A stretch of 21,036 nucleotides of DNA from a virus. Its lineage: Duplodnaviria; Heunggongvirae; Uroviricota; Caudoviricetes. Made by a program: the position numbers and the translations under genes. The stretch lies in the IMG/VR virus record IMGVR_UViG_2563366928_000010; one strand, given 5' to 3'. Shown here in pieces: positions 3,388 to 19,716 of this stretch (within the stretch, counting starts at the first letter, position 1; each line of letters begins with the position of its first letter). The notes under the pieces are model-generated. The model had not been told where the DNA came from. It searched no databases and worked only from the letters and a program-made list of their open reading frames with translations.

Positions 3388-3816
3388 TCACGGTTTAAAA
3401 TCCAGCACTCCATTGTGAAATACTTTATATACTTCCGGAGACGGCGGAACTGGTATATCAGCATGCTTCACCGCATTCATCGCTTCACGACATAAATCGG
3501 GGTCTCCACCTTCTCTTTTAACCTGTAGCAGAAGACCATTCGGGGCCATATACATTCTCAGTGAACACTCTTTTCCTGAATACTTACTCGCATCCTTTAA
3601 CTGTTCTTCTATGGCTTTCCTGACCTGAATGGCATACTGCCTGATTTCTTCACTGGCATCAGGGGTACGTTCCGATGAGCTCAAATTTTGCGACTTTATT
3701 AATTTATCTGAGTGATACAGAGAAGCATCATAATTATTTGTCGATACATCTTTTGTGCAGCCAGTTGTCAGACTGGCTAATATCAAAACAAGAACTGGTA
3801 CAGCACGGCAATACAT
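3388..3816 (-). CDS. Lipoprotein with TolA C-terminal (domain III)-like domain, 142 aa
   Basis: ATG at 3816 with GGAGA SD 8 nt upstream; signal peptide MYCRAVPVLVLILASLTTGC with lipobox; C-terminal half SKYSGKECSLRMYMAPNGLLLQVKREGGDPDLCREAMNAVKHADIPVPPSPEVYKVFHNGVLDFKP resembles recalled E. coli TolA C-terminus (...SYAGKTCTLRIKLAPDGMLLDIKPEGGDPALCQAAL...VYEVFKNAPLDFKP). Confidence 0.7.
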   Translation of the reverse strand: MYCRAVPVLVLILASLTTGCTKDVSTNNYDASLYHSDKLIKSQNLSSSERTPDASEEIRQYAIQVRKAIEEQLKDASKYSGKECSLRMYMAPNGLLLQVKREGGDPDLCREAMNAVKHADIPVPPSPEVYKVFHNGVLDFKP

Positions 3817-4570: not shown

Positions 4571-5074
4571 TTATTGATAGTGTTTTATGTTCAGATAATG
4601 CCCGATGACTTTGTCATGCAGCTCCACCGATTTTGAGAACGACAGCAACTTCCGTCCCAGCCGTGCCAGGTGCTGCCTCAGATTCAGGTTATGCCGCTCA
4701 ATTCGCTGCGTATATCGCTTGCTGATTACGTGCAGCTTTCCCTTCAGGCGGGATTCATACAGCGGCCAGCCATCCGTCATCCATATCACCACGTCAAAGG
4801 GTGACAGCAGGCTCATAAGACGCCCCAGCGTCGCCATAGTGCGTTCACCGAATACGTGCGCAACAACCGTCTTCCGGAGACTGTCATACGCGTAAAACAG
4901 CCAGCGCTGGCGCGATTTAGCCCCGACATAGCCCCACTGTTCGTCCATTTCCGCGCAGACGATGACGTCACTGCCCGGCTGTATGCGCGAGGTTACCGAC
5001 TGCGGCCTGAGTTTTTTAAGTGACGTAAAATCGTGTTGAGGCCAACGCCCATAATGCGGGCAGTTGCCCGGCAT
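4571..5074 (-). CDS. insB: IS1 transposase InsB (expressed as InsAB' by frameshift)
   Basis: 167 aa ORF overlapping insA 3' end in the -1 frame, as in IS1. Confidence 0.85.
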
Positions 5075-5479: not shown

Positions 5480-5861
5480 TTTACGTACGTAAACTACTAA
5501 ATGATATTTGTGAGAATGCCACCGAGTGTTCAAAACACCACCACAAATACATAAGAAAACTTCAACAAATAACCAATGAATAATTTCCGATGTTATTTTT
5601 AGGTTGTTTAAATTAAGCCAAAAAATTATAGGGCGCTTATAAATAAGTGTCATTAATATAAATCAGCTAATAGATTTATTTTTGTTCAAACAAGAGCCAT
5701 GAATAGGATTAGATAGAAAAGGTTCAGATAAAAATAGAGATCTACGTCACAAATTAAATGAGAAACTAAAACTTACATCTTGAAATAATCACATTGATTA
5801 GATGAATATTTATCGCGCAGTGACATCATTTTTTTATAATAGTTCAAAAAAAGGGCGTACA
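5480..5861 (+). promoter_or_regulatory. AT-rich upstream regulatory region of the porin gene (exact promoter not resolved)
   Basis: About 380 bp strongly AT-rich non-coding DNA immediately upstream of the porin start, typical of enterobacterial porin control regions. Confidence 0.35.
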
Positions 5862-6944
5862 ATGAAAAAATTAACAGTGGCAATTTCTGCTGTAGCTGCA
5901 TCAGTACTGATGGCGATGTCTGCTCAGGCAGCTGAAATTTATAATAAAGACAGTAACAAGCTGGATCTATACGGGAAAGTTAATGCCAAGCACTACTTCT
6001 CCTCTAATGATGCAGATGATGGTGATACTACTTATGCTCGTCTTGGCTTCAAAGGTGAAACCCAAATCAACGATCAACTGACTGGTTTCGGTCAGTGGGA
6101 ATATGACTTCAAAGGCAACCGTGCTGAATCTCAAGGTTCTTCCAAAGACAAAACCCGTCTTGCATTTGCAGGCCTGAAATTTGGTGATTACGGCTCAATC
6201 GATTACGGTCGTAACTACGGTGTAGCATACGACATCGGTGCGTGGACTGACGTTCTGCCAGAATTCGGTGGTGATACCTGGACCCAGACAGATGTGTTCA
6301 TGACTGGCCGCACTACTGGTGTTGCAACTTATCGTAACAACGACTTCTTTGGTCTGGTCGATGGCCTGAACTTTGCTGCTCAGTATCAGGGTAAAAATGA
6401 CCGCACTGACGTAACTGAAGCCAATGGTGATGGTTTCGGTTTCTCCACTACTTATGAGTATGAAGGATTCGGCGTGGGTGCAACCTATGCTAAATCAGAT
6501 CGCACTGACGGTCAGGTCGCCTATGGTAAGAGCAAATTCAATGCCTCCGGCAAAAATGCGGAAGTATGGGCTGCAGGCCTGAAATATGATGCGAACAATA
6601 TCTATCTGGCTACCACATATTCTGAAACTCAGAATATGACCGTTTTTGGTAATAACCATATTGCAAACAAAGCACAAAACTTTGAAGCAGTAGCACAATA
6701 TCAGTTTGACTTCGGTCTGCGCCCATCTGTTGCTTACCTTCAGTCAAAAGGTAAAGACCTTGGTGTTCATGGTGACCGAGACTTAGTCAAGTATGTCGAT
6801 GTCGGTGCTACTTACTACTTTAATAAAAACATGTCCACTTTTGTTGATTACAAAATCAACTTAATTGACGATAGTAAGTTTACCAAAACAGCTGGTATTG
6901 ATACCGACGACATCGTCGCTGTAGGTCTGGTTTATCAGTTCTAA
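5862..6944 (+). CDS. nmpC: Outer-membrane general porin, NmpC/Lc/OmpC family (phage-borne)
   Basis: ATG at 5862 with AAGGG SD; signal peptide [23 protein letters not shown]; [16 protein letters not shown]... and C-terminal ...VGLVYQF beta-barrel terminus; matches recalled NmpC/Lc porins. Confidence 0.85.
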
Positions 6945-7132: not shown

Positions 7133-7516
7133 TCAATTAGAATTATTAGCAACGATATCCATATCTAACCGGATATCTAATGCCATTAACATCCCTTCAA
7201 TTATGCCCTCAGCCTTCTGTAACCTTTTCCCGATATAACCATCCGAGCAGCAATGCTTACTTGCCAGTGACATGAATGTCATACCACATACATAATAATC
7301 TACTAATAAATCGTGTAAATCGCTGTTGTTCTTTTTCAGACGGGCCATGCACCCGCAAATGATCATCGCGTCATCGTCACAACATTGCGGGCGAGATTTT
7401 ACTTTTGAAGGAATTAATCCCTTAAAACCGGCAGCAATGGACGACCAGGTCACATCCTCATGATTATTTGCCGCCCATGCGCCCCAGCGTTCAAGAACCA
7501 TCTGAATATCACGCAT
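7133..7516 (-). CDS. Q: Late-gene antiterminator Q (phage 82 / DLP12 QuuD type)
   Basis: 127 aa from ATG at 7516: [60 protein letters not shown]... with Cys-rich Zn-binding region; matches recalled DLP12 YbcQ/QuuD. Confidence 0.8.
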
Positions 7517-8373
7517 TATTCGCACTCACCAACCAGATTGAGAATGACCGCTGCACCGTCGTCTTCCATGCATTCACCCTTACCACTTGCCAGAAACCAG
7601 CGGCACACCTCCACGGCTTCAGCGCGTGTCACCGGTTTGATGGTTGCCAGCAATTTTTCAAGGTAGCGCTCGCGGTCATATACCGATTCGTGATGCTCAG
7701 AGTAACCAAACTCATCGCCCTGTTCTTTAGTTGCAGTGTGGCGAACACTGTAGAGCCAGTCCCAGTAAACGAACTCGCGAACAACATCAGACAGCGTATA
7801 AGGCTCAGGCAGCACATCGCGATATCCATCAACAAATGCCCGACGCTGTTCATCAATTTCGTTCATGCGGCTGCCGCCAATGCTTCCGGCTTTTTTCTCT
7901 GCCGCAGTCCAGCCCCAGAGATGATCGTTGATAAATTTCTGGGAAGACCTGATGACCCGCTCTGCTTCCACATCTTCGAGCGCTGCTTCATAGCTACCAA
8001 ACGTAGCCCTGACTGATGCCGCTTTTTTGATGTTCTCCCGGGCGTTCCTGATAACCTGCGCAGGGTTATCCATGCCGATGATGCCGAACGCAACTTGGAA
8101 AGGTTCGTAACCATTCGCCAGCAGATAACGCGAATAGCGTTCCTGAGCCTCTTTTGGGGAAATTTTAATTTTCACCAGCGCAGCCTCAGCAGCATCCAGA
8201 TGTGCGGGTTCGTTCAGACGGATAACCTCCAGCACCCAAAGATAAGCATCAGTCTGCTTATGCCCGGTGATTCTCCGTTGCTCTGGCAGGGGCTTGATGT
8301 TTGCGAGGGCGGAGCTGTACGCTGCCGTCGGGATGGTGAATAGTGCTTTATGTTCGTTATTATCAGTACGCAT
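7516..8373 (-). CDS. Hypothetical phage protein, 285 aa, translationally coupled between primase and Q
   Basis: ATG at 8373 overlaps primase stop; stop overlaps Q start (TAATG); no family recognised by eye. Confidence 0.6.
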
Positions 8374-9342: not shown

Positions 9343-11001
9343 TTACTGACTCAGATTGTTTATATTTTTCTGGAGTTGGTGCTTTGCCTGCATGATGCGC
9401 CAGGCCTCACTGCCTGCCGGTATCTCACGTCGTTCATCACGTTCCTGAGATAAATCAATCGTTGTTTGTGCGTTTTCAGTGACCTTCTGAACCCGCTGGT
9501 GGCCTTTGGCAAACCGGATCAGTTTGTGTCTGATGTAGTTATTTACCTCAGGGGTAATTTCCATCGGAAAGTTACTCAGTCCGTCAGGCCACTCACCGAA
9601 CTTTTCCCGGAAAGTGTGAGCACACCATCCGTCACTGACTGGACGCCCCAGCGAAGCACGCTGGCGCTGATAAAATTTGATCTGACTCCACCAGGACTGT
9701 TTCTCTGCCTTCGTCGACTGATGCTGATTTTTACCCAGCTTATTAAGTTTGCGGCTAGTGTCAGTATCAACGTCTTCACCTCGCAGCGGCTTGTGTCCAC
9801 ATTTCGGGCAAACATAGACGCCTGCTGGCTTCATGTAGTGGCATTGAGGGCATTCATGTGGCAGTTTTTCGGCCCGTTCCTCAACTGCCCGGCGCGCGCT
9901 TTCCTCCATGCCGTCAGACTTACCGGGAAGCTCGTCGTACTCGATTGAATCCGGATAACCCAAACGGTGCACGGTGCCGCTGTGATCGAAGATAAGGCAG
10001 GACTCTTTACCCGGTGCGGTGCGCAGCCCACGCCCGAGCGCCTGCAACCAGCGAATTTCGCTTTTTGTTGGCCTGGCGTAGATGATGCAACGAACGTCAC
10101 TATCGAATCCGGCTACCAGAACGCCCACACTAACGATGATTTTCGTTGCACCGGTTTCAAAGCGGTGAATGATGGTCTGGCGCTCATCTACCGGAGTGTC
10201 TGCGGTCATTACCTCAGCGTTAACACCCGCCAGGTTAAACTGGATTGTCAGGTAATTGGCGTGGGCTACGTTGACGCAGAAAGCGATGGTAGGTAGATCC
10301 CGACCATTCTCCAGCCAGTTCTGTACAATGTCGCCCACCAGCGTAGAGCCGCACATGATTTCAGCCAGCTGTGTTTCGTTGTAATCGCGGCCGTACTCAA
10401 GCGAAGATGTGGTTTTAACACCTTTCAGATCCGGCTTAGTTGGCGCGTAAAATTCGTATTTACTCAGATCGCCACGCTGGATTAACTCGCCGATGGTGGT
10501 CGGTTTAATCAGTCGGTCATAGTATTTGCCCAGGAACGGGGAAAACGGAGTACCCGACAGGCCAATCACCTTTACGCCTTTGCCGCGCAGACGTTCGATA
10601 TCCTTCAGGATGCGTTTTTTACGCAGGTGCGCTTCGTCGATAATCAGCAGATCGATATTTTCAGGAAAAACACGACGAATAAGCGTATCAGCGCTGGCAA
10701 TCTGAATTTTCCGGTCCGGATCGTAGTTCGGGTGATCCGCCCAGATATAACCGATTTCATCTCCAGGTAAACCATACTGCACGAACCGATTAGCCGTCTG
10801 ACCAATCAGGATGGTGTACGGAACACAGAACAGAGCGCGCATACCACGGCTGACAAAACCAGCAACTATGAAGGCTGCCAGACCCGTTTTACCGCTACCT
10901 GTTGGCGAATACACCATGAAGGTGTCGTTTGCCTTCCAGTAACGGCGCAACATGTTTAACGCCCGTTCCTGTGCAAAATTCGGCGTGATCGTCAGCTGCA
11001 T
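9343..11001 (-). CDS. Phage SF2 DEAH-box replicative helicase with C-terminal Zn ribbons
   Basis: Strong SD GGGGAGG + ATG at 11001; Walker A SPTGSGKT, Walker B LLIIDEAH, SGTP motif; C-terminal CPQCHY...CPKCGH. Confidence 0.85.
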   Translation of the reverse strand: MQLTITPNFAQERALNMLRRYWKANDTFMVYSPTGSGKTGLAAFIVAGFVSRGMRALFCVPYTILIGQTANRFVQYGLPGDEIGYIWADHPNYDPDRKIQIASADTLIRRVFPENIDLLIIDEAHLRKKRILKDIERLRGKGVKVIGLSGTPFSPFLGKYYDRLIKPTTIGELIQRGDLSKYEFYAPTKPDLKGVKTTSSLEYGRDYNETQLAEIMCGSTLVGDIVQNWLENGRDLPTIAFCVNVAHANYLTIQFNLAGVNAEVMTADTPVDERQTIIHRFETGATKIIVSVGVLVAGFDSDVRCIIYARPTKSEIRWLQALGRGLRTAPGKESCLIFDHSGTVHRLGYPDSIEYDELPGKSDGMEESARRAVEERAEKLPHECPQCHYMKPAGVYVCPKCGHKPLRGEDVDTDTSRKLNKLGKNQHQSTKAEKQSWWSQIKFYQRQRASLGRPVSDGWCAHTFREKFGEWPDGLSNFPMEITPEVNNYIRHKLIRFAKGHQRVQKVTENAQTTIDLSQERDERREIPAGSEAWRIMQAKHQLQKNINNLSQ

Positions 11002-11594
11002 TGTGCTGCCTCCCCATGGTTCAGCGGGAGGCGCCTGAAATGGTGACCGCGATGAGACTTTGTTCTTCCAGCAATAACAGCATAAACACTACCGTGATCA
11101 AACCCGGCACTAATTAGCGCCTTTTTCCCGCAAAAGGTTTGCTCTTCCCTGGTCGCAATATTTGTGGCGACAATCAGGCCCTTAAATTGTTTGTTGTTCG
11201 CCCCCTGAGAATTATTCAGCCCGGTGTGAATAGAATGCTGAATGTTTTCGCTATGGCTAACCCACTCCAGATTGGATGCATGGTTATTCAGCTTGTTGCC
11301 GTCCTTATGGTTCACTTCAGGGTGGTTGTAAGGGTTGCTGCAAAAAGCCAGCGCTACCAGACGGTGTACGGCAAAAGTTTGGCGATTACGTTTGTAGCTC
11401 AGGTTAACGGTTTTATATCCATCCCGGCGCACTCTTCCCTTGAGGAACACGCCACGAATTTGGCGAATAAAAAATTCCGATTCAGCAATTCGATTAACCC
11501 CACGGATGCGTCCCGCCGAGCTAACGAGGTAAGCATCACCATACGGAGCAACAGGAACCGGAAGCCATTTTTCACCATCAAAACTGTTAACCAT
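10992..11594 (-). CDS. HNH homing-type endonuclease (NUMOD4-like N-terminus + HNH_3-like core)
   Basis: Internal ATG at 11594 with GAGGTGA SD; GEKWLPVP...YLVSSAGRIRG and HRLVALAFCSNPYNHPEVNHKDGNKLNNHASNLEW motifs; 10 nt overlap with helicase start. Confidence 0.75.
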   Translation of the reverse strand: MVNSFDGEKWLPVPVAPYGDAYLVSSAGRIRGVNRIAESEFFIRQIRGVFLKGRVRRDGYKTVNLSYKRNRQTFAVHRLVALAFCSNPYNHPEVNHKDGNKLNNHASNLEWVSHSENIQHSIHTGLNNSQGANNKQFKGLIVATNIATREEQTFCGKKALISAGFDHGSVYAVIAGRTKSHRGHHFRRLPLNHGEAAQCS

Positions 11595-11612
11595 AAAATC
11601 ACCTCTGAACAT

Positions 11613-12360: not shown

Positions 12361-12471
12361 TCTTTAGCCTCACACCGGATACTCTGTTATCCAAGAATGT
12401 TAAACGCGAGAATCCAAAGTATCAAGAAATTCTGTTACTTTAGTATCAGCAGCCATGAAAGGAGAAGAAAA
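12361..12471. promoter_or_regulatory. Divergent promoter/operator region (OR-like) between cro-position gene and repressor
   Basis: Repeated (A/G)GTATC(A/C) motifs at 12377-12382 (inverted), 12418-12425, 12442-12449; candidate minus-strand promoter -35 TTGATA (complement of 12420-12425), 17 bp spacer, -10 TAACAT (complement of 12397-12402). Confidence 0.45.
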
Positions 12472-13128
12472 ATGAAATCTTTAGGTGAACGCCTCATCAA
12501 CGCACGACAAAAAGCTGGGTTAACGCAAGATGCGTTGGCTAAAAAAGCAGGGGTCACCAGAGTTGCAATCAGTAAAGCCGAGCAAGGCCTTACAAAAAGT
12601 TTCAACGGTGACACCCTTTTTAAAGTCGCAGCTGCACTGCAGTGTTCACCGCAGTGGCTTCAGAACGGAGATGAAAAAGATAAGCATTGGGAAAATAATG
12701 TTAAGAGCTGCCCACAGAGAGACACAGCACACTCTTACCCTGTAATTAACTGGGTTCAGGCAGGATTATTCGCAACTGCTGGTGATGACTACAACATGTA
12801 TGATCAGGATAATTGGAGGCATTCTGTAAAATACGCTGGTGAGAGGGGGTTCTGGCTGGAAGTGCACGGAGACTCAATGACTTCGCCCGTAGGAATAACA
12901 TTTCCTGAAGGAATGTCGATCCTTGTCAACCCAGATAAAGAAGTTTTTTCAGGGTGTTACGTCATCGCCAGAAAAAAATCTACCCATGAAGCAACATTCA
13001 AAAAATATATTTCTGAAATGGGAAAGGCGTTTCTAAAGCCCCTTAATCCACAATATCCAATCATAGAAATGGACAATGATTGCGAAATAGTAGGTGTTGT
13101 GGTTGATGCCAGGTGGGATATTTTCTGA
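12472..13128 (+). CDS. cI: CI-like prophage repressor (N-terminal HTH_XRE + C-terminal S24 LexA-like autopeptidase)
   Basis: AAAGGAG SD + ATG at 12472; HTH LGERLINARQKAGLTQDALAKKAGVTRVAISKAE; S24 catalytic motifs GDSM and downstream Lys (ATFKKY). Confidence 0.85.
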   Translation: MKSLGERLINARQKAGLTQDALAKKAGVTRVAISKAEQGLTKSFNGDTLFKVAAALQCSPQWLQNGDEKDKHWENNVKSCPQRDTAHSYPVINWVQAGLFATAGDDYNMYDQDNWRHSVKYAGERGFWLEVHGDSMTSPVGITFPEGMSILVNPDKEVFSGCYVIARKKSTHEATFKKYISEMGKAFLKPLNPQYPIIEMDNDCEIVGVVVDARWDIF

Positions 13129-13224
13129 TCAGACACAAAAAGAAACCAAAGTATCAAAAATCACTTGCCACACCTTGATACCTTAGTTACCATGAAACAA
13201 AGTTCGTAACTGAGGTATCATCTC
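13129..13224. promoter_or_regulatory. OL-like operator region downstream of repressor gene
   Basis: Same 12-mer CCAAAGTATCAA as in the OR region (13146-13157 vs 12414-12425), inverted copy TTGATACC 13175-13182, GGTATCAT 13214-13221. Confidence 0.45.
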
Positions 13225-13641
13225 ATGATCAATAAAGCTACAACTCTTGACTGTCTCGAAGAACTGAAAAACCTCGGCAGCCTCATTACACTAATAGCAA
13301 AAGCAACACCAGATGCTACGCTCTCTAGCGATATAGAGTCATGCGCAGGACTGGCATGGGATATGACAAATAGCATATCCAGAAAGCTATCGTCAGCAAT
13401 GCTTTTACAGAACAAAAATTCTGCAATCAACAACCGTCTTCGCACCCAACGCGAAGACTGCGGCTTAACAACAGCCGAACTCGCCAGACTGCTCGATCTC
13501 GATGAAGAAATTATCATCCAGTGGGAGAGCGGAGAGTACGAACCAACCATCAGCATGCTTATCCCTCTGGCTAATGTTCTTGGCTGTGATCCAATGTGGT
13601 TACTGACTGGTGCTTATAAACAAAATCAGGAGGAAGCATAA
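13225..13641 (+). CDS. HTH_XRE-domain protein (138 aa) with novel N-terminal half
   Basis: GAGGT SD 8 nt upstream; C-terminal RLRTQREDCGLTTAELARLLDLDEEIIIQWESGEYEPTISMLIPLANVLGCDPMWLLTG is a Cro/CI-type HTH. Confidence 0.7.
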   Translation: MINKATTLDCLEELKNLGSLITLIAKATPDATLSSDIESCAGLAWDMTNSISRKLSSAMLLQNKNSAINNRLRTQREDCGLTTAELARLLDLDEEIIIQWESGEYEPTISMLIPLANVLGCDPMWLLTGAYKQNQEEA

Positions 13642-14566: not shown

Positions 14567-14781
14567 TGGCTAATTTATCCCCTGTATCTGTTGTGCACGA
14601 AAAAGTGCAGATCGTTATGACAATTGAAAATGGCCAAGTCACAGGTGTCTGCAAAGTCCGCGATGGCGAGCTGATTGCCAGCATGGATACATTCATACGG
14701 CTGGCAGAAAGAGCGGGGTATCAGATAACAGCACCTGCTCAGGAGGAAACCGGTGGCATTAACAGCAACACGCATTCCTGA
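14566..14781 (+). CDS. Hypothetical protein (71 aa)
   Basis: ATGA overlap with upstream stop; GGAGGAA SD 7 nt upstream. Confidence 0.55.
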   Translation: MANLSPVSVVHEKVQIVMTIENGQVTGVCKVRDGELIASMDTFIRLAERAGYQITAPAQEETGGINSNTHS

Positions 14782-14967
14782 GCGGATCCACCGGCAGGCA
14801 TTGCAGGTCCTGTTGTTGTACCGATGCCGACGGATATTTCCGCATCGGATACAGCGCACCGGATATCTCAGTCTGAAGGTTAACCGTCGCTGGCGGCTGT
14901 TATCGAAAGACGACGGCCGGAACTGGGAAGTAATGAGTCATGAACGTTATTCGGGAGAAATAAAGAA

Positions 14968-15360
14968 ATGATCGACAACCGCACCGCCAGCGCCATTGAC
15001 CAGGCATTACAGAAACATGATACACCCGTCGGCCCGTTATTTTTTGTAACACGCCACGGAAGAACAAAAAAATGCCTCAGCCGAAAAACGGCAATTCGTT
15101 ACCTGGCATTCTTTATGACCACCCGCGCTTTTGAACGTTCAGGATTCCGACAACGCTATCCTGACAAGCGTTTTATCTTCAACAGGAATGAGATATGGAA
15201 ACGTGGAGAATCAACCACAGAGTATACCCGCGCACACCAGCGAACAATCAGACGACTGCGCAGACTCATCGCCAGGAAACAGTATACAGAAAAATGGTTC
15301 AGAAAATATGACACATGGAGCGCCGGATATTACGAACTGATGGCAACAAAACCATTCTGA
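14968..15360 (+). CDS. Hypothetical basic protein (130 aa)
   Basis: GGGAGA SD 9 nt upstream; Arg/Lys-rich C-terminal region (RTIRRLRRLIARKQYTEKWFRKY). Confidence 0.55.
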   Translation: MIDNRTASAIDQALQKHDTPVGPLFFVTRHGRTKKCLSRKTAIRYLAFFMTTRAFERSGFRQRYPDKRFIFNRNEIWKRGESTTEYTRAHQRTIRRLRRLIARKQYTEKWFRKYDTWSAGYYELMATKPF

Positions 15361-15420
15361 CGTAAACGAAATTAACCATGACGCAATTAAATAAGGCAAG
15401 CCGAATACATCAGGAGGACC

Positions 15421-15609
15421 ATGAACATTTATTTCAGAATAGTTATATCACTGGCAATTATCACATGTATTTACGGATTAATCGTTCCGGCCCTCATATC
15501 AATGAAGGATACGGTAGCAGTGATTTCTGGCTTTGCTCTGGCGTGTCTGACCCCGCCCTGCATTTATGCCATTTATAAGGGTCTTTCTTTTTCTAAGGAT
15601 AAAAGATGA
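15421..15609 (+). CDS. Small membrane protein with two predicted TM helices (62 aa)
   Basis: AGGAGG SD; hydrophobic segments RIVISLAIITCIYGLIVPALI and AVISGFALACLTPPCIYAIY; stop overlaps start of downstream SPFH gene (ATGA). Confidence 0.55.
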   Translation: MNIYFRIVISLAIITCIYGLIVPALISMKDTVAVISGFALACLTPPCIYAIYKGLSFSKDKR

Positions 15610-16433
15610 AAAAATTACTTTTTGCTTTAGCCCTTGTTCTGCCGACCATTGGCCTTGTCGGTTGCGATCGCGTTGAGCCTGGTAATGTGGGCATCAAAGT
15701 AAACAAACTGGGCGACGATAAAGGCGTCGGTGAAGTGGTCGGTGTTGGGCGCTACTGGACGGGATGGAACACTGAGGTTTACATCTTCCCGACCTTTAAG
15801 CAGATGAAGACCTACGATGATCCATTCAGTTTCCAGATGAGTGACGGTACAACCATCGGCTATCACATCGGCGTGGCCTACAAAGTTGATCCATCCAAAG
15901 TTACCACAGTCTTTCAGACCTACCGCAAAGGCGTGGACGACATTACCGACACCGACCTGCGCCAGAAGATAGCCGACGCACTCAACCGACTGGCCAGCAA
16001 AATGACCACCGACAAATTTATCGACGGCGGCAAGTCTGAGCTGCTGGATGCAGCTCTTAAAGACATTCAGGAAGAAATGACGCCCATCGGTATTCAGGTA
16101 ATGAGCCTCTCATATGTGGGTAAGCCGGAGTACCCGCCTACTGTTATCGACAGCATTAATGCCAAAGTCACGGCGAACCAGAAAACCCTGCAACGCGAGC
16201 AGGAAGTAAAACAGCGCGAAGCGGAAGCCAACATGTTGCGCGCGGAAGCTGCCGGACAGGCAGATGTGATTCGCACAAAAGCCCAGGCCGAAGCCGATGC
16301 TATTCGTTTACGCGGTGAAGCTCTGCGCCAGAACCCCGGTGTTATGGAGCTGGAAGCCATCAACAAGTGGAACGGTACACTGCCGCAATACATGACCAGC
16401 GGTGCCAACACACCATTTATTCAGGTTAAGTAA
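15606..16433 (+). CDS. SPFH/Band-7 (HflK/C, stomatin-like) domain lipoprotein, 275 aa
   Basis: AAGGA SD; lipoprotein signal MKKLLFALALVLPTIGLVGC with Asp at +2; SPFH core and Ala/Glu/Arg-rich coiled-coil tail QREQEVKQREAEANMLRAEAAGQADVIRTKAQAEADAIRLRGEAL. Confidence 0.8.
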   Translation: MKKLLFALALVLPTIGLVGCDRVEPGNVGIKVNKLGDDKGVGEVVGVGRYWTGWNTEVYIFPTFKQMKTYDDPFSFQMSDGTTIGYHIGVAYKVDPSKVTTVFQTYRKGVDDITDTDLRQKIADALNRLASKMTTDKFIDGGKSELLDAALKDIQEEMTPIGIQVMSLSYVGKPEYPPTVIDSINAKVTANQKTLQREQEVKQREAEANMLRAEAAGQADVIRTKAQAEADAIRLRGEALRQNPGVMELEAINKWNGTLPQYMTSGANTPFIQVK

Positions 16434-16476
16434 TACATATGCCCGGTATTACACGCCGGGCTGTCTGGAGATAAAA

Positions 16477-17226
16477 ATGAATATTGTAACCATCAACAAC
16501 AAACAGTTTCCGGTAATCGAATATCGCGGTCAGCGTGTTGTGACATTTGCAATAATTGATGACGTCCACCAGCGCCCGGAAGGTACCGCCCGTGCTGCGT
16601 TTAACCGCAACCGTTCTCACTTTATCGAAGGGGTGGATTTTCTTGAAATGACTGCGGACGTAATACGTACGGAGTCACTTTCTGATGCCTTTGCCGCGCG
16701 AACTGCCAAAGGGATCATTCTTTTCGAGTCTGGTTACCTGATGTTGACGAAGCCTTTTAACGATGCTCTTGCATGGCAGGTTCAGCGCGAACTGGTTAAC
16801 AGCTATTTCCGAACTCACGCGCCGCTGACGGAAATGGAGATGATCGCTGCAATGGCCGCCGATGCCGTTCGCCAGCAGAAGCGCCTGAGTCATGTTGAAG
16901 AGAAGATCGAAACGGTCACCAAAGCTGTGGAGAACATCAAACGCGGCACAATGCGCACCGGATATGTCGGTTACCGCCAGGTGGTAGCCAAAAGCGGAAT
17001 GAGTGACGCCAAGTGTCGGAATCTGGTCAACGCCTACCACATCCCTACCGACACGCACGAATTTATGACTCCGGACGGTCTGTTGTCTCGCAGGGCTGTC
17101 GTCGAGCTTGAGACATTTATGGCGGCGTTCCACCAAATGATGTCAGAGGCTGAACCACGCGGCACACGCTGGTATCACCCGAAGATGGGGCTTTTCCAGG
17201 TAATCGGATGGGAGGATAAAGCATGA
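16477..17226 (+). CDS. ORF6N-domain-like protein (putative antirepressor/DNA-binding regulator), 249 aa
   Basis: GGAGAT SD + ATG 16477; N-terminus PVIEYRGQRVVTF...NRNRSHFIEGVDFLEMT...LFESGYLMLTKPFNDALAWQVQRELVNSYFR resembles recalled ORF6N consensus. Confidence 0.6.
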   Translation: MNIVTINNKQFPVIEYRGQRVVTFAIIDDVHQRPEGTARAAFNRNRSHFIEGVDFLEMTADVIRTESLSDAFAARTAKGIILFESGYLMLTKPFNDALAWQVQRELVNSYFRTHAPLTEMEMIAAMAADAVRQQKRLSHVEEKIETVTKAVENIKRGTMRTGYVGYRQVVAKSGMSDAKCRNLVNAYHIPTDTHEFMTPDGLLSRRAVVELETFMAAFHQMMSEAEPRGTRWYHPKMGLFQVIGWEDKA

Positions 17227-19461: not shown

Positions 19462-19716
19462 ATGCAGACAATCATCTATCAGATAACCCCCAGCAAATGG
19501 TGTACGGAGAGAGTCCTTATTGCATCAACAGGGCTAAAGCCCGGCACCATCGAGCGGGCCAGGAGAAAGTCATGGATGCAGGGAAAAGAATACCGCCATT
19601 ACGCTGTAGAAGGTGATCCTGGGCATTACAGTGAATGCCTGTACAACATCGAAGAAATTATGCGATGGATCGAAAACCAGAAACAACCAGGTGCCAAAAA
19701 TGCAAGTTCCGGTTAA
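19462..19716 (+). CDS. Excisionase-like protein (84 aa)
   Basis: Small basic protein immediately upstream of and co-oriented with the integrase; GAGGT SD. Confidence 0.5.
   Translation: MQTIIYQITPSKWCTERVLIASTGLKPGTIERARRKSWMQGKEYRHYAVEGDPGHYSECLYNIEEIMRWIENQKQPGAKNASSG

Follow-up and report, generated by a model that had tools for sequence, protein, structure and literature searches.

The window, a 21,036-nt stretch of viral DNA (IMG/VR record IMGVR_UViG_2563366928_000010), is a lambdoid Escherichia coli prophage carrying two overlapping plus-strand genes that encode a 62-aa membrane hairpin protein and a 275-aa SPFH lipoprotein precursor (Table 1). The two genes are real and coupled, and belong to two families that move together among proteobacterial phages. 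The larger product is an exported SPFH protein of the prohibitin/HflK class, and the pair is carried by virulent and temperate phages alike. Our tentative picture of its function is that of an early-lytic, host-directed cage at the inner membrane.

The gene pair and its products

The preliminary description of this DNA had reported both open reading frames (ORFs), joined by an ATGA overlap, and the ORF list and a reading of the sequence confirm them. The ATGA at positions 15606–15609 holds the stop codon of the hairpin ORF, overlapping the start codon of the SPFH ORF, and an AAGGA motif lies inside the hairpin ORF, 6 nt 5′ of the SPFH ATG. Among 23 distinct alleles, the ratio of non-synonymous to synonymous polymorphism (pN/pS) was 0.33 in the hairpin frame and 1.1–1.2 in the other two frames, indicating that the hairpin ORF is coding; an alternative ORF over the small gene in another frame (15378–15578) was ruled out by the same off-frame values. 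An upstream small hydrophobic ORF overlaps or closely abuts the SPFH gene in P88 and a Pseudomonas phage (4 nt each), N4 and Paxi (8 nt each), Magneto (11 nt), Maja (20 nt) and phage K (1 nt). The partners in K and Magneto have one and three hydrophobic stretches, respectively, and do not, therefore, belong to the hairpin family. Of 80 IMG/VR loci, all of them close relatives (at least 91% identity) that provide counts of gene context and no added diversity, 78 have a motif-bearing hairpin ORF that precedes the SPFH gene by no more than about 300 nt. Given this recurrent stop/start overlap and the 78 loci with an upstream hairpin, the layout is conserved and not due to chance.

The hairpin ORF matches PHROG 1130, a phage ‘membrane protein’ family (E=1.5e-23, residues 1–61) placed in the category ‘moron, auxiliary metabolic gene and host takeover’. 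Its hydrophobic stretches (residues 7–21 and 34–48), which bear out the two-helix membrane protein described earlier, are joined by a short polar turn (S-M-K-D-T) and followed by a basic C-terminal tail. On the positive-inside rule, the protein is predicted to have both termini in the cytoplasm and the turn in the periplasm. Codons 23–31 are the most conserved stretch and correspond to the predicted periplasmic end of helix 1 and the turn; in the alignment across phage types, Pro23 is invariant and Ser27 nearly so. A profile search of 1.84 billion representative proteins yielded 98 clusters, all of stand-alone proteins of 36–91 aa, with the consensus YG[FL]xxPxL[IV]S[AM]xD[TS]xAVxxGF, which runs from the periplasmic end predicted for helix 1 through the turn into the beginning of helix 2. 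The hairpin protein matches no Pfam family at E≤0.1 and hence has no NfeD C-terminal OB-fold domain, for which its 62 residues would in any case be too short; an identity as an NfeD-like partner was rejected on these grounds.

The SPFH protein begins with MKKLLFALALVLPTIGLVGC, followed by D-R. This N-terminus (MKK, a hydrophobic stretch and LVGC) fits the lipobox pattern [LVI][ASTVI][GAS]C, and the lipobox with Asp at +2 and Arg at +3 is present as previously described. Cys20 is invariant in the alignments of 26 close homologues and of nine phage lineages, and C-D-R occurs in 80/80 close loci; in more distant enterobacterial phages the cysteine is followed by other residues (C-Y-D in N4, C-E-R in EC152, C-N-K in SeKF_13). 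Asp at +2 favours retention in the inner membrane through avoidance of the Lol pathway, the residue at +3 having a modulating effect. Judging from this signal, the protein would be lipidated and retained in the inner membrane. Pfam Band_7 (PF01145) matches at E=8e-31, with 107.9 bits against a cut-off of 23.6 and coverage of profile positions 2–176 of 176, and the protein matches PHROG 200, a phage ‘lipoprotein’ family, over residues 1–274 (E=6.4e-114). The AlphaFold2 (AF2) monomer model has a mean predicted local distance difference test score (pLDDT) of 70, the core scoring about 75–93 over residues 61–220 and both termini scoring low. Its long helix aligns with the coiled-coil region of HflK and can be compared with the wall helices of SPFH cages. 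The earlier reading of an SPFH core and a helical tail from the sequence is, thus, supported by Band_7 and by this helix, and the Foldseek check led to prohibitin, erlin and HflK/C. At the C-terminus, K254, W255, G257 and P260 are invariant across nine phage lineages; AF2 confidence is low in this motif, which may act as a cage cap.

Foldseek placed prohibitin (8rrh and 9o9z), erlin (9vvg and 9o9u) and HflK/C (7vhq, 7wi3, 9cz2) at the top, with a probability of 1.00 for prohibitin, erlin, HflK/C, stomatin and flotillin; major vault protein appeared lower down. The best match by sequence in the PDB is HflK (E=4e-4), followed by prohibitin-2. The phage protein resembles HflK and HflC in its SPFH fold, its predicted periplasmic-side domain, its long wall helix and its C-terminal segment, but shares only 15–20% identity with them, would be anchored through a lipobox where they have an N-terminal transmembrane helix, and is encoded by a single SPFH gene accompanied by a 62-aa hairpin in place of a K/C pair. 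It scored 25.9 bits against a cut-off of 134.4 for HflC and 22.7 against 159.4 for HflK (NCBIfam models TIGR01933, TIGR01932, PRK10930 and PRK11029), so far below these equivalog thresholds that it cannot be HflK or HflC proper. Prohibitins 1/2 and erlins 1/2 are the top structural matches and are similar in size (about 240–300 residues), but they are eukaryotic organelle proteins with transmembrane or hairpin anchors and 14–18% identity, and TM-scores remain at about 0.45 because the long helix is posed differently in the monomer model. Prohibitin, erlin and HflK/C form cages that face away from the cytoplasm and are tied to membrane proteolysis. The NfeD–SPFH operons of bacteria (YbbJ-QmcA, YqiJ-YqiK and YuaF-FloT) likewise combine a membrane-protein gene with an SPFH gene (cited in PMC9872710). 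The phage hairpin differs in having no NfeD/OB-fold domain, and the phage SPFH protein in its predicted export, QmcA and YqiK being oriented towards the cytoplasm.

Several GenBank records name the SPFH protein a ‘serine protease’. Band_7 is the only domain above the Pfam threshold, no protease domain was found among the Pfam matches, and a weak PHROG ‘protease’ match (E=1e-4) is confined to helix residues 165–256. This recurring label is unsupported, and probably descends from ‘membrane protease subunit, stomatin/prohibitin homologue’.

Table 1. Positions of the gene pair, its subfeatures and the candidate control region in the window
Feature	Position	Strand	Basis
Putative OL/PL-like operator/promoter	13141..13221	+	Repeats and promoter-like hexamers; function inferred
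Shine-Dalgarno AGGAGG of the small ORF	15412..15417	+	3 nt 5′ of the ATG at 15421; sequence reading
Small ORF, 62-aa two-helix membrane hairpin	15421..15609	+	ORF list, PHROG 1130
Conserved hairpin codons 23–31 (P-A-L-I-S-M-K-D-T)	15487..15513	+	Columns invariant or near-invariant in the hairpin alignment
Coupling junction	15595..15609	+	AAGGA ribosome-binding site within the small ORF and ATGA stop/start overlap
Larger ORF, 275-aa SPFH (prohibitin/HflK-like) lipoprotein precursor	15606..16433	+	Pfam, PHROG 200, Foldseek
Lipoprotein signal peptide, lipobox L-V-G-C (Cys20), Asp+2, Arg+3	15606..15665	+	Sequence
SPFH/Band 7 domain, residues 22–208	15669..16229	+	Pfam envelope
Long alpha-helix, residues 178–242 (65 residues)	16137..16331	+	DSSP on the AF2 model
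Conserved C-terminal motif K-W-[ND]-G-x-L-P ... P-F-[IV], residues 254–275	16365..16430	+	Alignment

Occurrence, exchange and operon position of the pair

Relatives of the lipoprotein were detected by tblastn in 766 of 50,697 phage records, and are also present in 535 of 5,426 complete E. coli genomes and on 193 PLSDB plasmids, mostly of about 90 kb and non-mobilizable, which are probably P1-like phage-plasmids. Identity to the window protein is 97.5% for L05 of the lambdoid phage phiP27, 93% for gp12 of the P2-like phage P88, 84% in temperate Klebsiella prophages, 61–74% in the virulent N4-like phages (61% for N4 gp20) and 46–49% in the virulent rV5-like phages. It falls to 36–43% in a mixed set of Pseudomonas, Stenotrophomonas, Burkholderia and rhizobial phages, and to 23–30% in another mixed set consisting of Kayvirus, Enterococcus, Caulobacter, crAss-like and Lak phages and haloarchaeal viruses. 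The two-gene layout occurs in lambdoid (phiP27, Stx2), P2-like (P88), P1-like (RCS47) and N4 (gp19/gp20) phages, and in rV5-like, BcepF1-like and Pseudomonas phages. The hairpin gene lies directly upstream of the SPFH gene, usually overlapping it, in P88, N4, Maja, a Pseudomonas phage and Paxi; one extra small ORF intervenes in EC152, and in phiP27 and RCS47 the upstream hairpin gene is present without being annotated. The N4 gp19/gp20, phiP27 L05, P88 gp11/gp12, Maja gp114/gp113 and RCS47 gp078 genes share families, order and overlapping frames with the window pair, their lipoproteins being 40–97% identical and their hairpins 16–34% identical between phage types. Distant SPFH genes have other small membrane-protein neighbours: upstream, a one-helix protein in phage K and a three-helix protein in Magneto; downstream, one-helix proteins in EF24C and HRTV-19 and a three-helix protein in the crAss-like cr128_1.

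Nor is the pair out of the ordinary or overlooked: it is a further member of a large, widespread and annotated, yet uncharacterised, phage family (N4 gp19/gp20, phiP27 L05, Maja), and its presence here is unsurprising. In the Burkholderia phage Maja, the two proteins are annotated as ‘HflC/HflK family inner membrane lipoprotein’ and ‘putative membrane protein’, and BFVD contains many viral SPFH proteins, none with a named function. A search of the literature found no functional study of a phage SPFH lipoprotein, in agreement with the earlier statement that no pair of this layout had been characterised; it returned mentions in genome notes, one virulence study of a Pasteurella prophage protein and one speculative comment on lysogeny. 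The presence of an SPFH gene has been mentioned for the T4-like phages 44RR, Aeh1 and RB43 (PMC1524935) and for Vi01-like phages (PMC10892097), and for an N4-like phage it was remarked that ‘the reason ... remains unclear’ (PMC13239085).

The loci are mosaic. By hairpin type, the 80 IMG/VR loci include 51 lambdoid, 15 P1 and 12 P2 cases. The three hairpin types are 17–22% identical to each other, and the lipoproteins that accompany them are at least 91% identical to the window copy. Nucleotide similarity between the window and the P88 and P1-like loci begins at about codon 17, at the lipobox, and a mosaic joint can be placed at about 15650–15665 (codons 15–20 of the SPFH gene), upstream of which the signal peptide and hairpin gene are swapped for versions with 17–22% identity. 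P0002, a 347-aa chain from a 94-kb P1-like plasmid contig that represents eight sequences, joins a P1-type hairpin, a signal peptide and the SPFH protein in frame, with a self-consistent topology. It could be due to a frameshift artefact, or could be a naturally occurring form of the pair in one chain, as in HflK; the profile search of 1.84 billion representatives gave no further hairpin–SPFH fusion.

In the window, a CI-like S24 repressor gene (12397–13128, plus strand) faces a cro-like gene. The minus strand carries, leftwards, replication genes, Q (7133–7525) and cargo, and the plus strand runs from the repressor through the pair to the excisionase (19462–19716) and integrase (19750 onwards) genes. 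GTATCA/TGATAC operator-like repeats are common to the cro/repressor intergenic region (12378–12450) and to 13141–13220, immediately 3′ of the repressor gene. A 20-nt repeat at 13141–13160 is 90% identical to 12409–12428 in the intergenic region, inverted repeats (TGATACCTTAGTTAC/GTAACTGAGGTATCA) lie at 13176–13220, and promoter-like hexamers are found at 13165–13193 and 13192–13221. From their sequences, the two regions look like phage OR and OL. A scan of the window revealed no plus-strand terminator-like site until 19787 and no promoter-like site beside the pair, and the GC content of the pair is unremarkable, like that of its surroundings; a promoter or terminator of its own, or a moron-like GC island, was therefore discounted. 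The placement in an early-left operon proposed earlier is a reasonable inference given the OL-like repeats, the promoter-like sites and the uninterrupted run to 19787. The OL/PL-like region would drive the plus-strand operon, and the pair would be silent in the lysogen and expressed after induction. The listed start of the repressor ORF, at 12397, leaves just 36 nt to the cro-like ORF, and the true start is, for this reason, probably further downstream. The 1.2 kb around the pair (15300–16500) is 100% identical to two RefSeq chromosomes. A near-identical prophage in E110019 is decaying: an IS3 element has inserted downstream of the pair, and Q, the large terminase gene and the gene after the ORF6N gene are interrupted by frameshifts or internal stops; its hairpin and SPFH genes are intact.

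Other phages have the pair in a comparable position. The P88 copy is part of the early operon, where it is flanked by cox and the replication gene. Within the C1-controlled ban operon of P1, upl and the last tRNA gene are separated by tciA-tciB-tciC (L096, 14234–14930), and in the P1-like RCS47 this slot is filled by the pair (L005, 2755–3775). The P1 tciABC genes share this slot, between upl and the tRNA gene before ban, but encode unrelated TerB-like proteins, and the link is positional only. In N4, the pair lies just after the RNAPII genes and gp18, the last of which is annotated ‘superinfection exclusion, similar to P22 gp17’. The pair is, thus, in the early operon of three types of temperate phage; repressor control is annotated for P1 and would extend to the window and P88. 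Virulent phages hold it in early or middle regions (for N4, according to its presumed timing of expression). Given the early-operon position in three temperate phage types, the pair probably has an early lytic function and is not expressed by the prophage.

Candidate functions

SPFH cages (HflK/C, prohibitin, stomatin, flotillin and erlin) are understood structurally, and their functions are still unclear. Phages have retained a compact exported SPFH protein with a dedicated mini-partner, passing it among lambdoid, P2-like, P1-like, N4-like and rV5-like genomes. Roughly a tenth of complete E. coli genomes contain it, as do Stx2-converting phages. As a tractable two-gene system, the pair offers a simple route to the effect of an SPFH cage on a membrane, and would reveal whether phages use it to act on quality control of the FtsH type, on exclusion or on membrane energetics.

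We tentatively propose that the pair is a mobile phage module whose two products would be synthesised jointly and in linked amounts at an early stage of the lytic cycle. After export, the 275-aa protein would receive a lipid at Cys20 and stay at the periplasmic face of the inner membrane, where its SPFH domain, long helix and conserved C-terminus would build a ring or dome of the kind formed by HflK/C, prohibitin and erlin. The hairpin would sit in the inner membrane beneath this dome with its conserved turn toward the periplasm, possibly touching the lipoprotein through that turn, and would supply the transmembrane part that HflK/C carry within the chain, giving a two-piece HflK/C-type cage. 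Such a cage could enclose part of the inner membrane, capturing or shielding a conserved membrane component of the host and so conditioning the envelope for phage development. The leading candidate client is FtsH, a speculative choice made by analogy and possible rather than likely; its access to membrane and regulatory substrates would be altered, with an effect on CII-type regulators as a side benefit in temperate phages. The boldest form of the proposal, a split cage made of a lipid-anchored periplasmic dome and a palisade of hairpins, used early in infection by many unrelated phage families to enclose or capture a conserved inner-membrane machine of the host, with FtsH as its prime client, is doubtful, the alternatives to it being that the cage caps the hairpin as a gated pore or that the pair is the missing superinfection-exclusion system of N4; if true, it would represent an unstudied general host-takeover device.

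Several lines of evidence favour this picture. The fold and the nearest relatives suit a cage: an SPFH domain, HflK as the best PDB sequence match, and prohibitin, erlin and HflK/C at the top of the Foldseek list. Early lytic expression is favoured by the upstream OL/PL-like region with no promoter or terminator signal inside the operon, and by the places that the pair takes in P88, in P1-like phages and in N4. The lipobox with Asp at +2 in 80/80 close homologues argues for a domain in the periplasm, on the HflK/C side. The overlap of the genes, their association in 78/80 loci, the conservation of the turn, the P0002 fusion and the small hydrophobic partners of distant SPFH genes indicate that the two genes work together. 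Sipho-, myo- and podophages whose virions and switches are unrelated have mature lipoproteins of 61–93% identity, which argues for a conserved host partner rather than a phage-specific one. Fused proteins were considered as broader evidence of contact and set aside, since P0002, possibly a frameshift artefact, was the only one found.

Several observations weigh against the proposal. One mature SPFH protein accompanies three dissimilar hairpins, and contact between the two may depend on a short motif or may not occur. Arg at +3 may weaken retention in the inner membrane, and the more distant homologues differ after the cysteine. The protein falls short of the equivalog models for HflK and HflC, and the structural support comes from a monomer model of moderate quality (pLDDT 70, termini low). 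No hydrophobic gene neighbours the SPFH gene in SeKF_13. Haloarchaeal viruses carry distant SPFH genes and, to our knowledge, their hosts have no FtsH, so FtsH cannot be the client for the whole superfamily.

An unlikely alternative is early superinfection exclusion or envelope protection, the pair blocking the entry of later phage DNA or the action of pore-forming colicins at the inner membrane. The early-operon position would suit such a role, as would the location of the N4 pair behind gp18, with its annotated similarity to P22 gp17, and the replacement in P1-like phages of tciABC, annotated ‘tellurite or colicin resistance or inhibition of cell division’. The exclusion system of N4 is still unidentified, and superinfection appears to trigger lysis inhibition in this phage (PMC12642591). 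Many known exclusion proteins are lipoproteins or small inner-membrane proteins (PMC9586334, PMC10883804). However, such proteins are usually specific for a phage or receptor and diversify fast, whereas the mature protein here retains its 61–93% identity across unrelated virions, and a cage would cover only patches of the membrane. The analogy with T4 Imm, a small membrane protein, and Sp, a periplasmic protein, is one of layout alone. Searched against PADLOC-DB 2.0, the two proteins and three encoded by neighbouring genes matched no defence family at E≤0.1; this result tells against exclusion, led us to reject identity as a defence system, and leaves the abortive-infection module suggested in the preliminary description without a matching model.

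It is similarly improbable that the pair is a membrane-integrity or lysis-timing factor, in which an SPFH scaffold would stabilise the energised inner membrane or restrain holins, or the hairpin itself, until lysis, raising burst size. The Kayvirus SPFH gene mbpS is found, together with the holin-like one-helix gene mbpV, between lysK, which encodes the endolysin, and tgl, which encodes the lytic transglycosylase (PMC7150955). Bacterial SPFH proteins support tolerance to membrane stress: HflKC is reported to help cells to tolerate aminoglycosides and oxidative stress (PMC10434171), and in Bacillus subtilis the phage-shock protein is reported to be connected to the membrane by an SPFH-domain protein (PMC8581546). 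Such a need would be common to virulent, temperate, Gram-positive and archaeal viruses, in keeping with the very wide distribution of the family. The two helices and basic C-terminal tail of the hairpin correspond to a class II holin topology. Against this, the window pair belongs to the opposite early operon, a long way from the lysis cassette, most Gram-negative phages hold the pair among early genes and not lysis genes, and the idea is unspecific.

A strict CIII-like modulator of lysogeny, specific to temperate phages and stabilising a CII-type regulator via FtsH/HflKC, is very unlikely. The pair shares its operon with a gene (13225–13641) matching a ‘CII-like regulator’ PHROG (phrog_4836, E=9e-42), and HflK is the nearest solved relative. 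Lambda CIII is similar in its leftward early operon position and its possible link to FtsH, but it is a small cytoplasmic amphipathic peptide with no sequence or structural relation to the pair. Close homologues in virulent N4-like and rV5-like phages (45–66% identity), and in P2-like (P88) and P1-like carriers that use other switches without CII/FtsH, argue against a CIII-like lysogeny role as the general function. The FtsH/lysogeny modulator envisaged in the preliminary description fails in this general sense, its FtsH component persisting as the speculative client above; the idea is not new, having been put forward for SPFH proteins of Pseudomonas phages in a paper which itself notes that the gene also occurs in obligately lytic phages (PMC8540360).

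Lysogenic conversion, with a prophage-expressed lipoprotein acting in host stress tolerance or as a Toll-like receptor (TLR) 2 agonist in an animal host, is the least probable reading, since no promoter- or terminator-like sites bracket the pair, its GC content is that of its surroundings, its operons appear repressor-controlled and virulent phages carry it, despite the category of PHROG 1130 and the precedent, likened by its HflK/C-like description only, of Pmorf0222 from a Pasteurella multocida prophage, which is released in outer-membrane vesicles and signals through TLR1/2, and whose deletion attenuates virulence (PMC9872710).

Other genes of the window

Two further plus-strand genes flank the pair at a distance. 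The 72-aa ORF at 14753–14971 (RefSeq name ‘ParE family toxin-like protein’ in the E110019 copy) overlaps both of its neighbours in the early-left operon, with no annotated antitoxin evident. The 189-aa product of 17223–17792 matches phrog_3007, labelled ‘RusA-like resolvase’, as well as phage processivity-factor PHROGs and, weakly and short of the cut-off (E=0.004), the central domain of the beta clamp of DNA polymerase III; these weak matches are at odds with the label.

On the minus strand, an ORF at 10992–11612 with NUMOD4 and HNH homing-endonuclease-like features adjoins the DEAD-box helicase gene of the replication module. Beyond the Q gene, the cargo includes a 380-aa Gram-negative porin (5802–6944, plus strand; PF00267, E=2.5e-151; phrog_410), adjoined by an IS1 transposase ORF (4571–5074, minus strand). 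A 142-aa ORF at 3388–3816 (minus strand) contains a TolA C-terminal domain (PF06519, E=3.8e-23) resembling TolA domain III, and its N-terminus, MYCRAVPVLVLILASLTTGC, resembles a lipoprotein signal; one might speculate that this protein is a decoy against TolA-binding colicins or filamentous phages.

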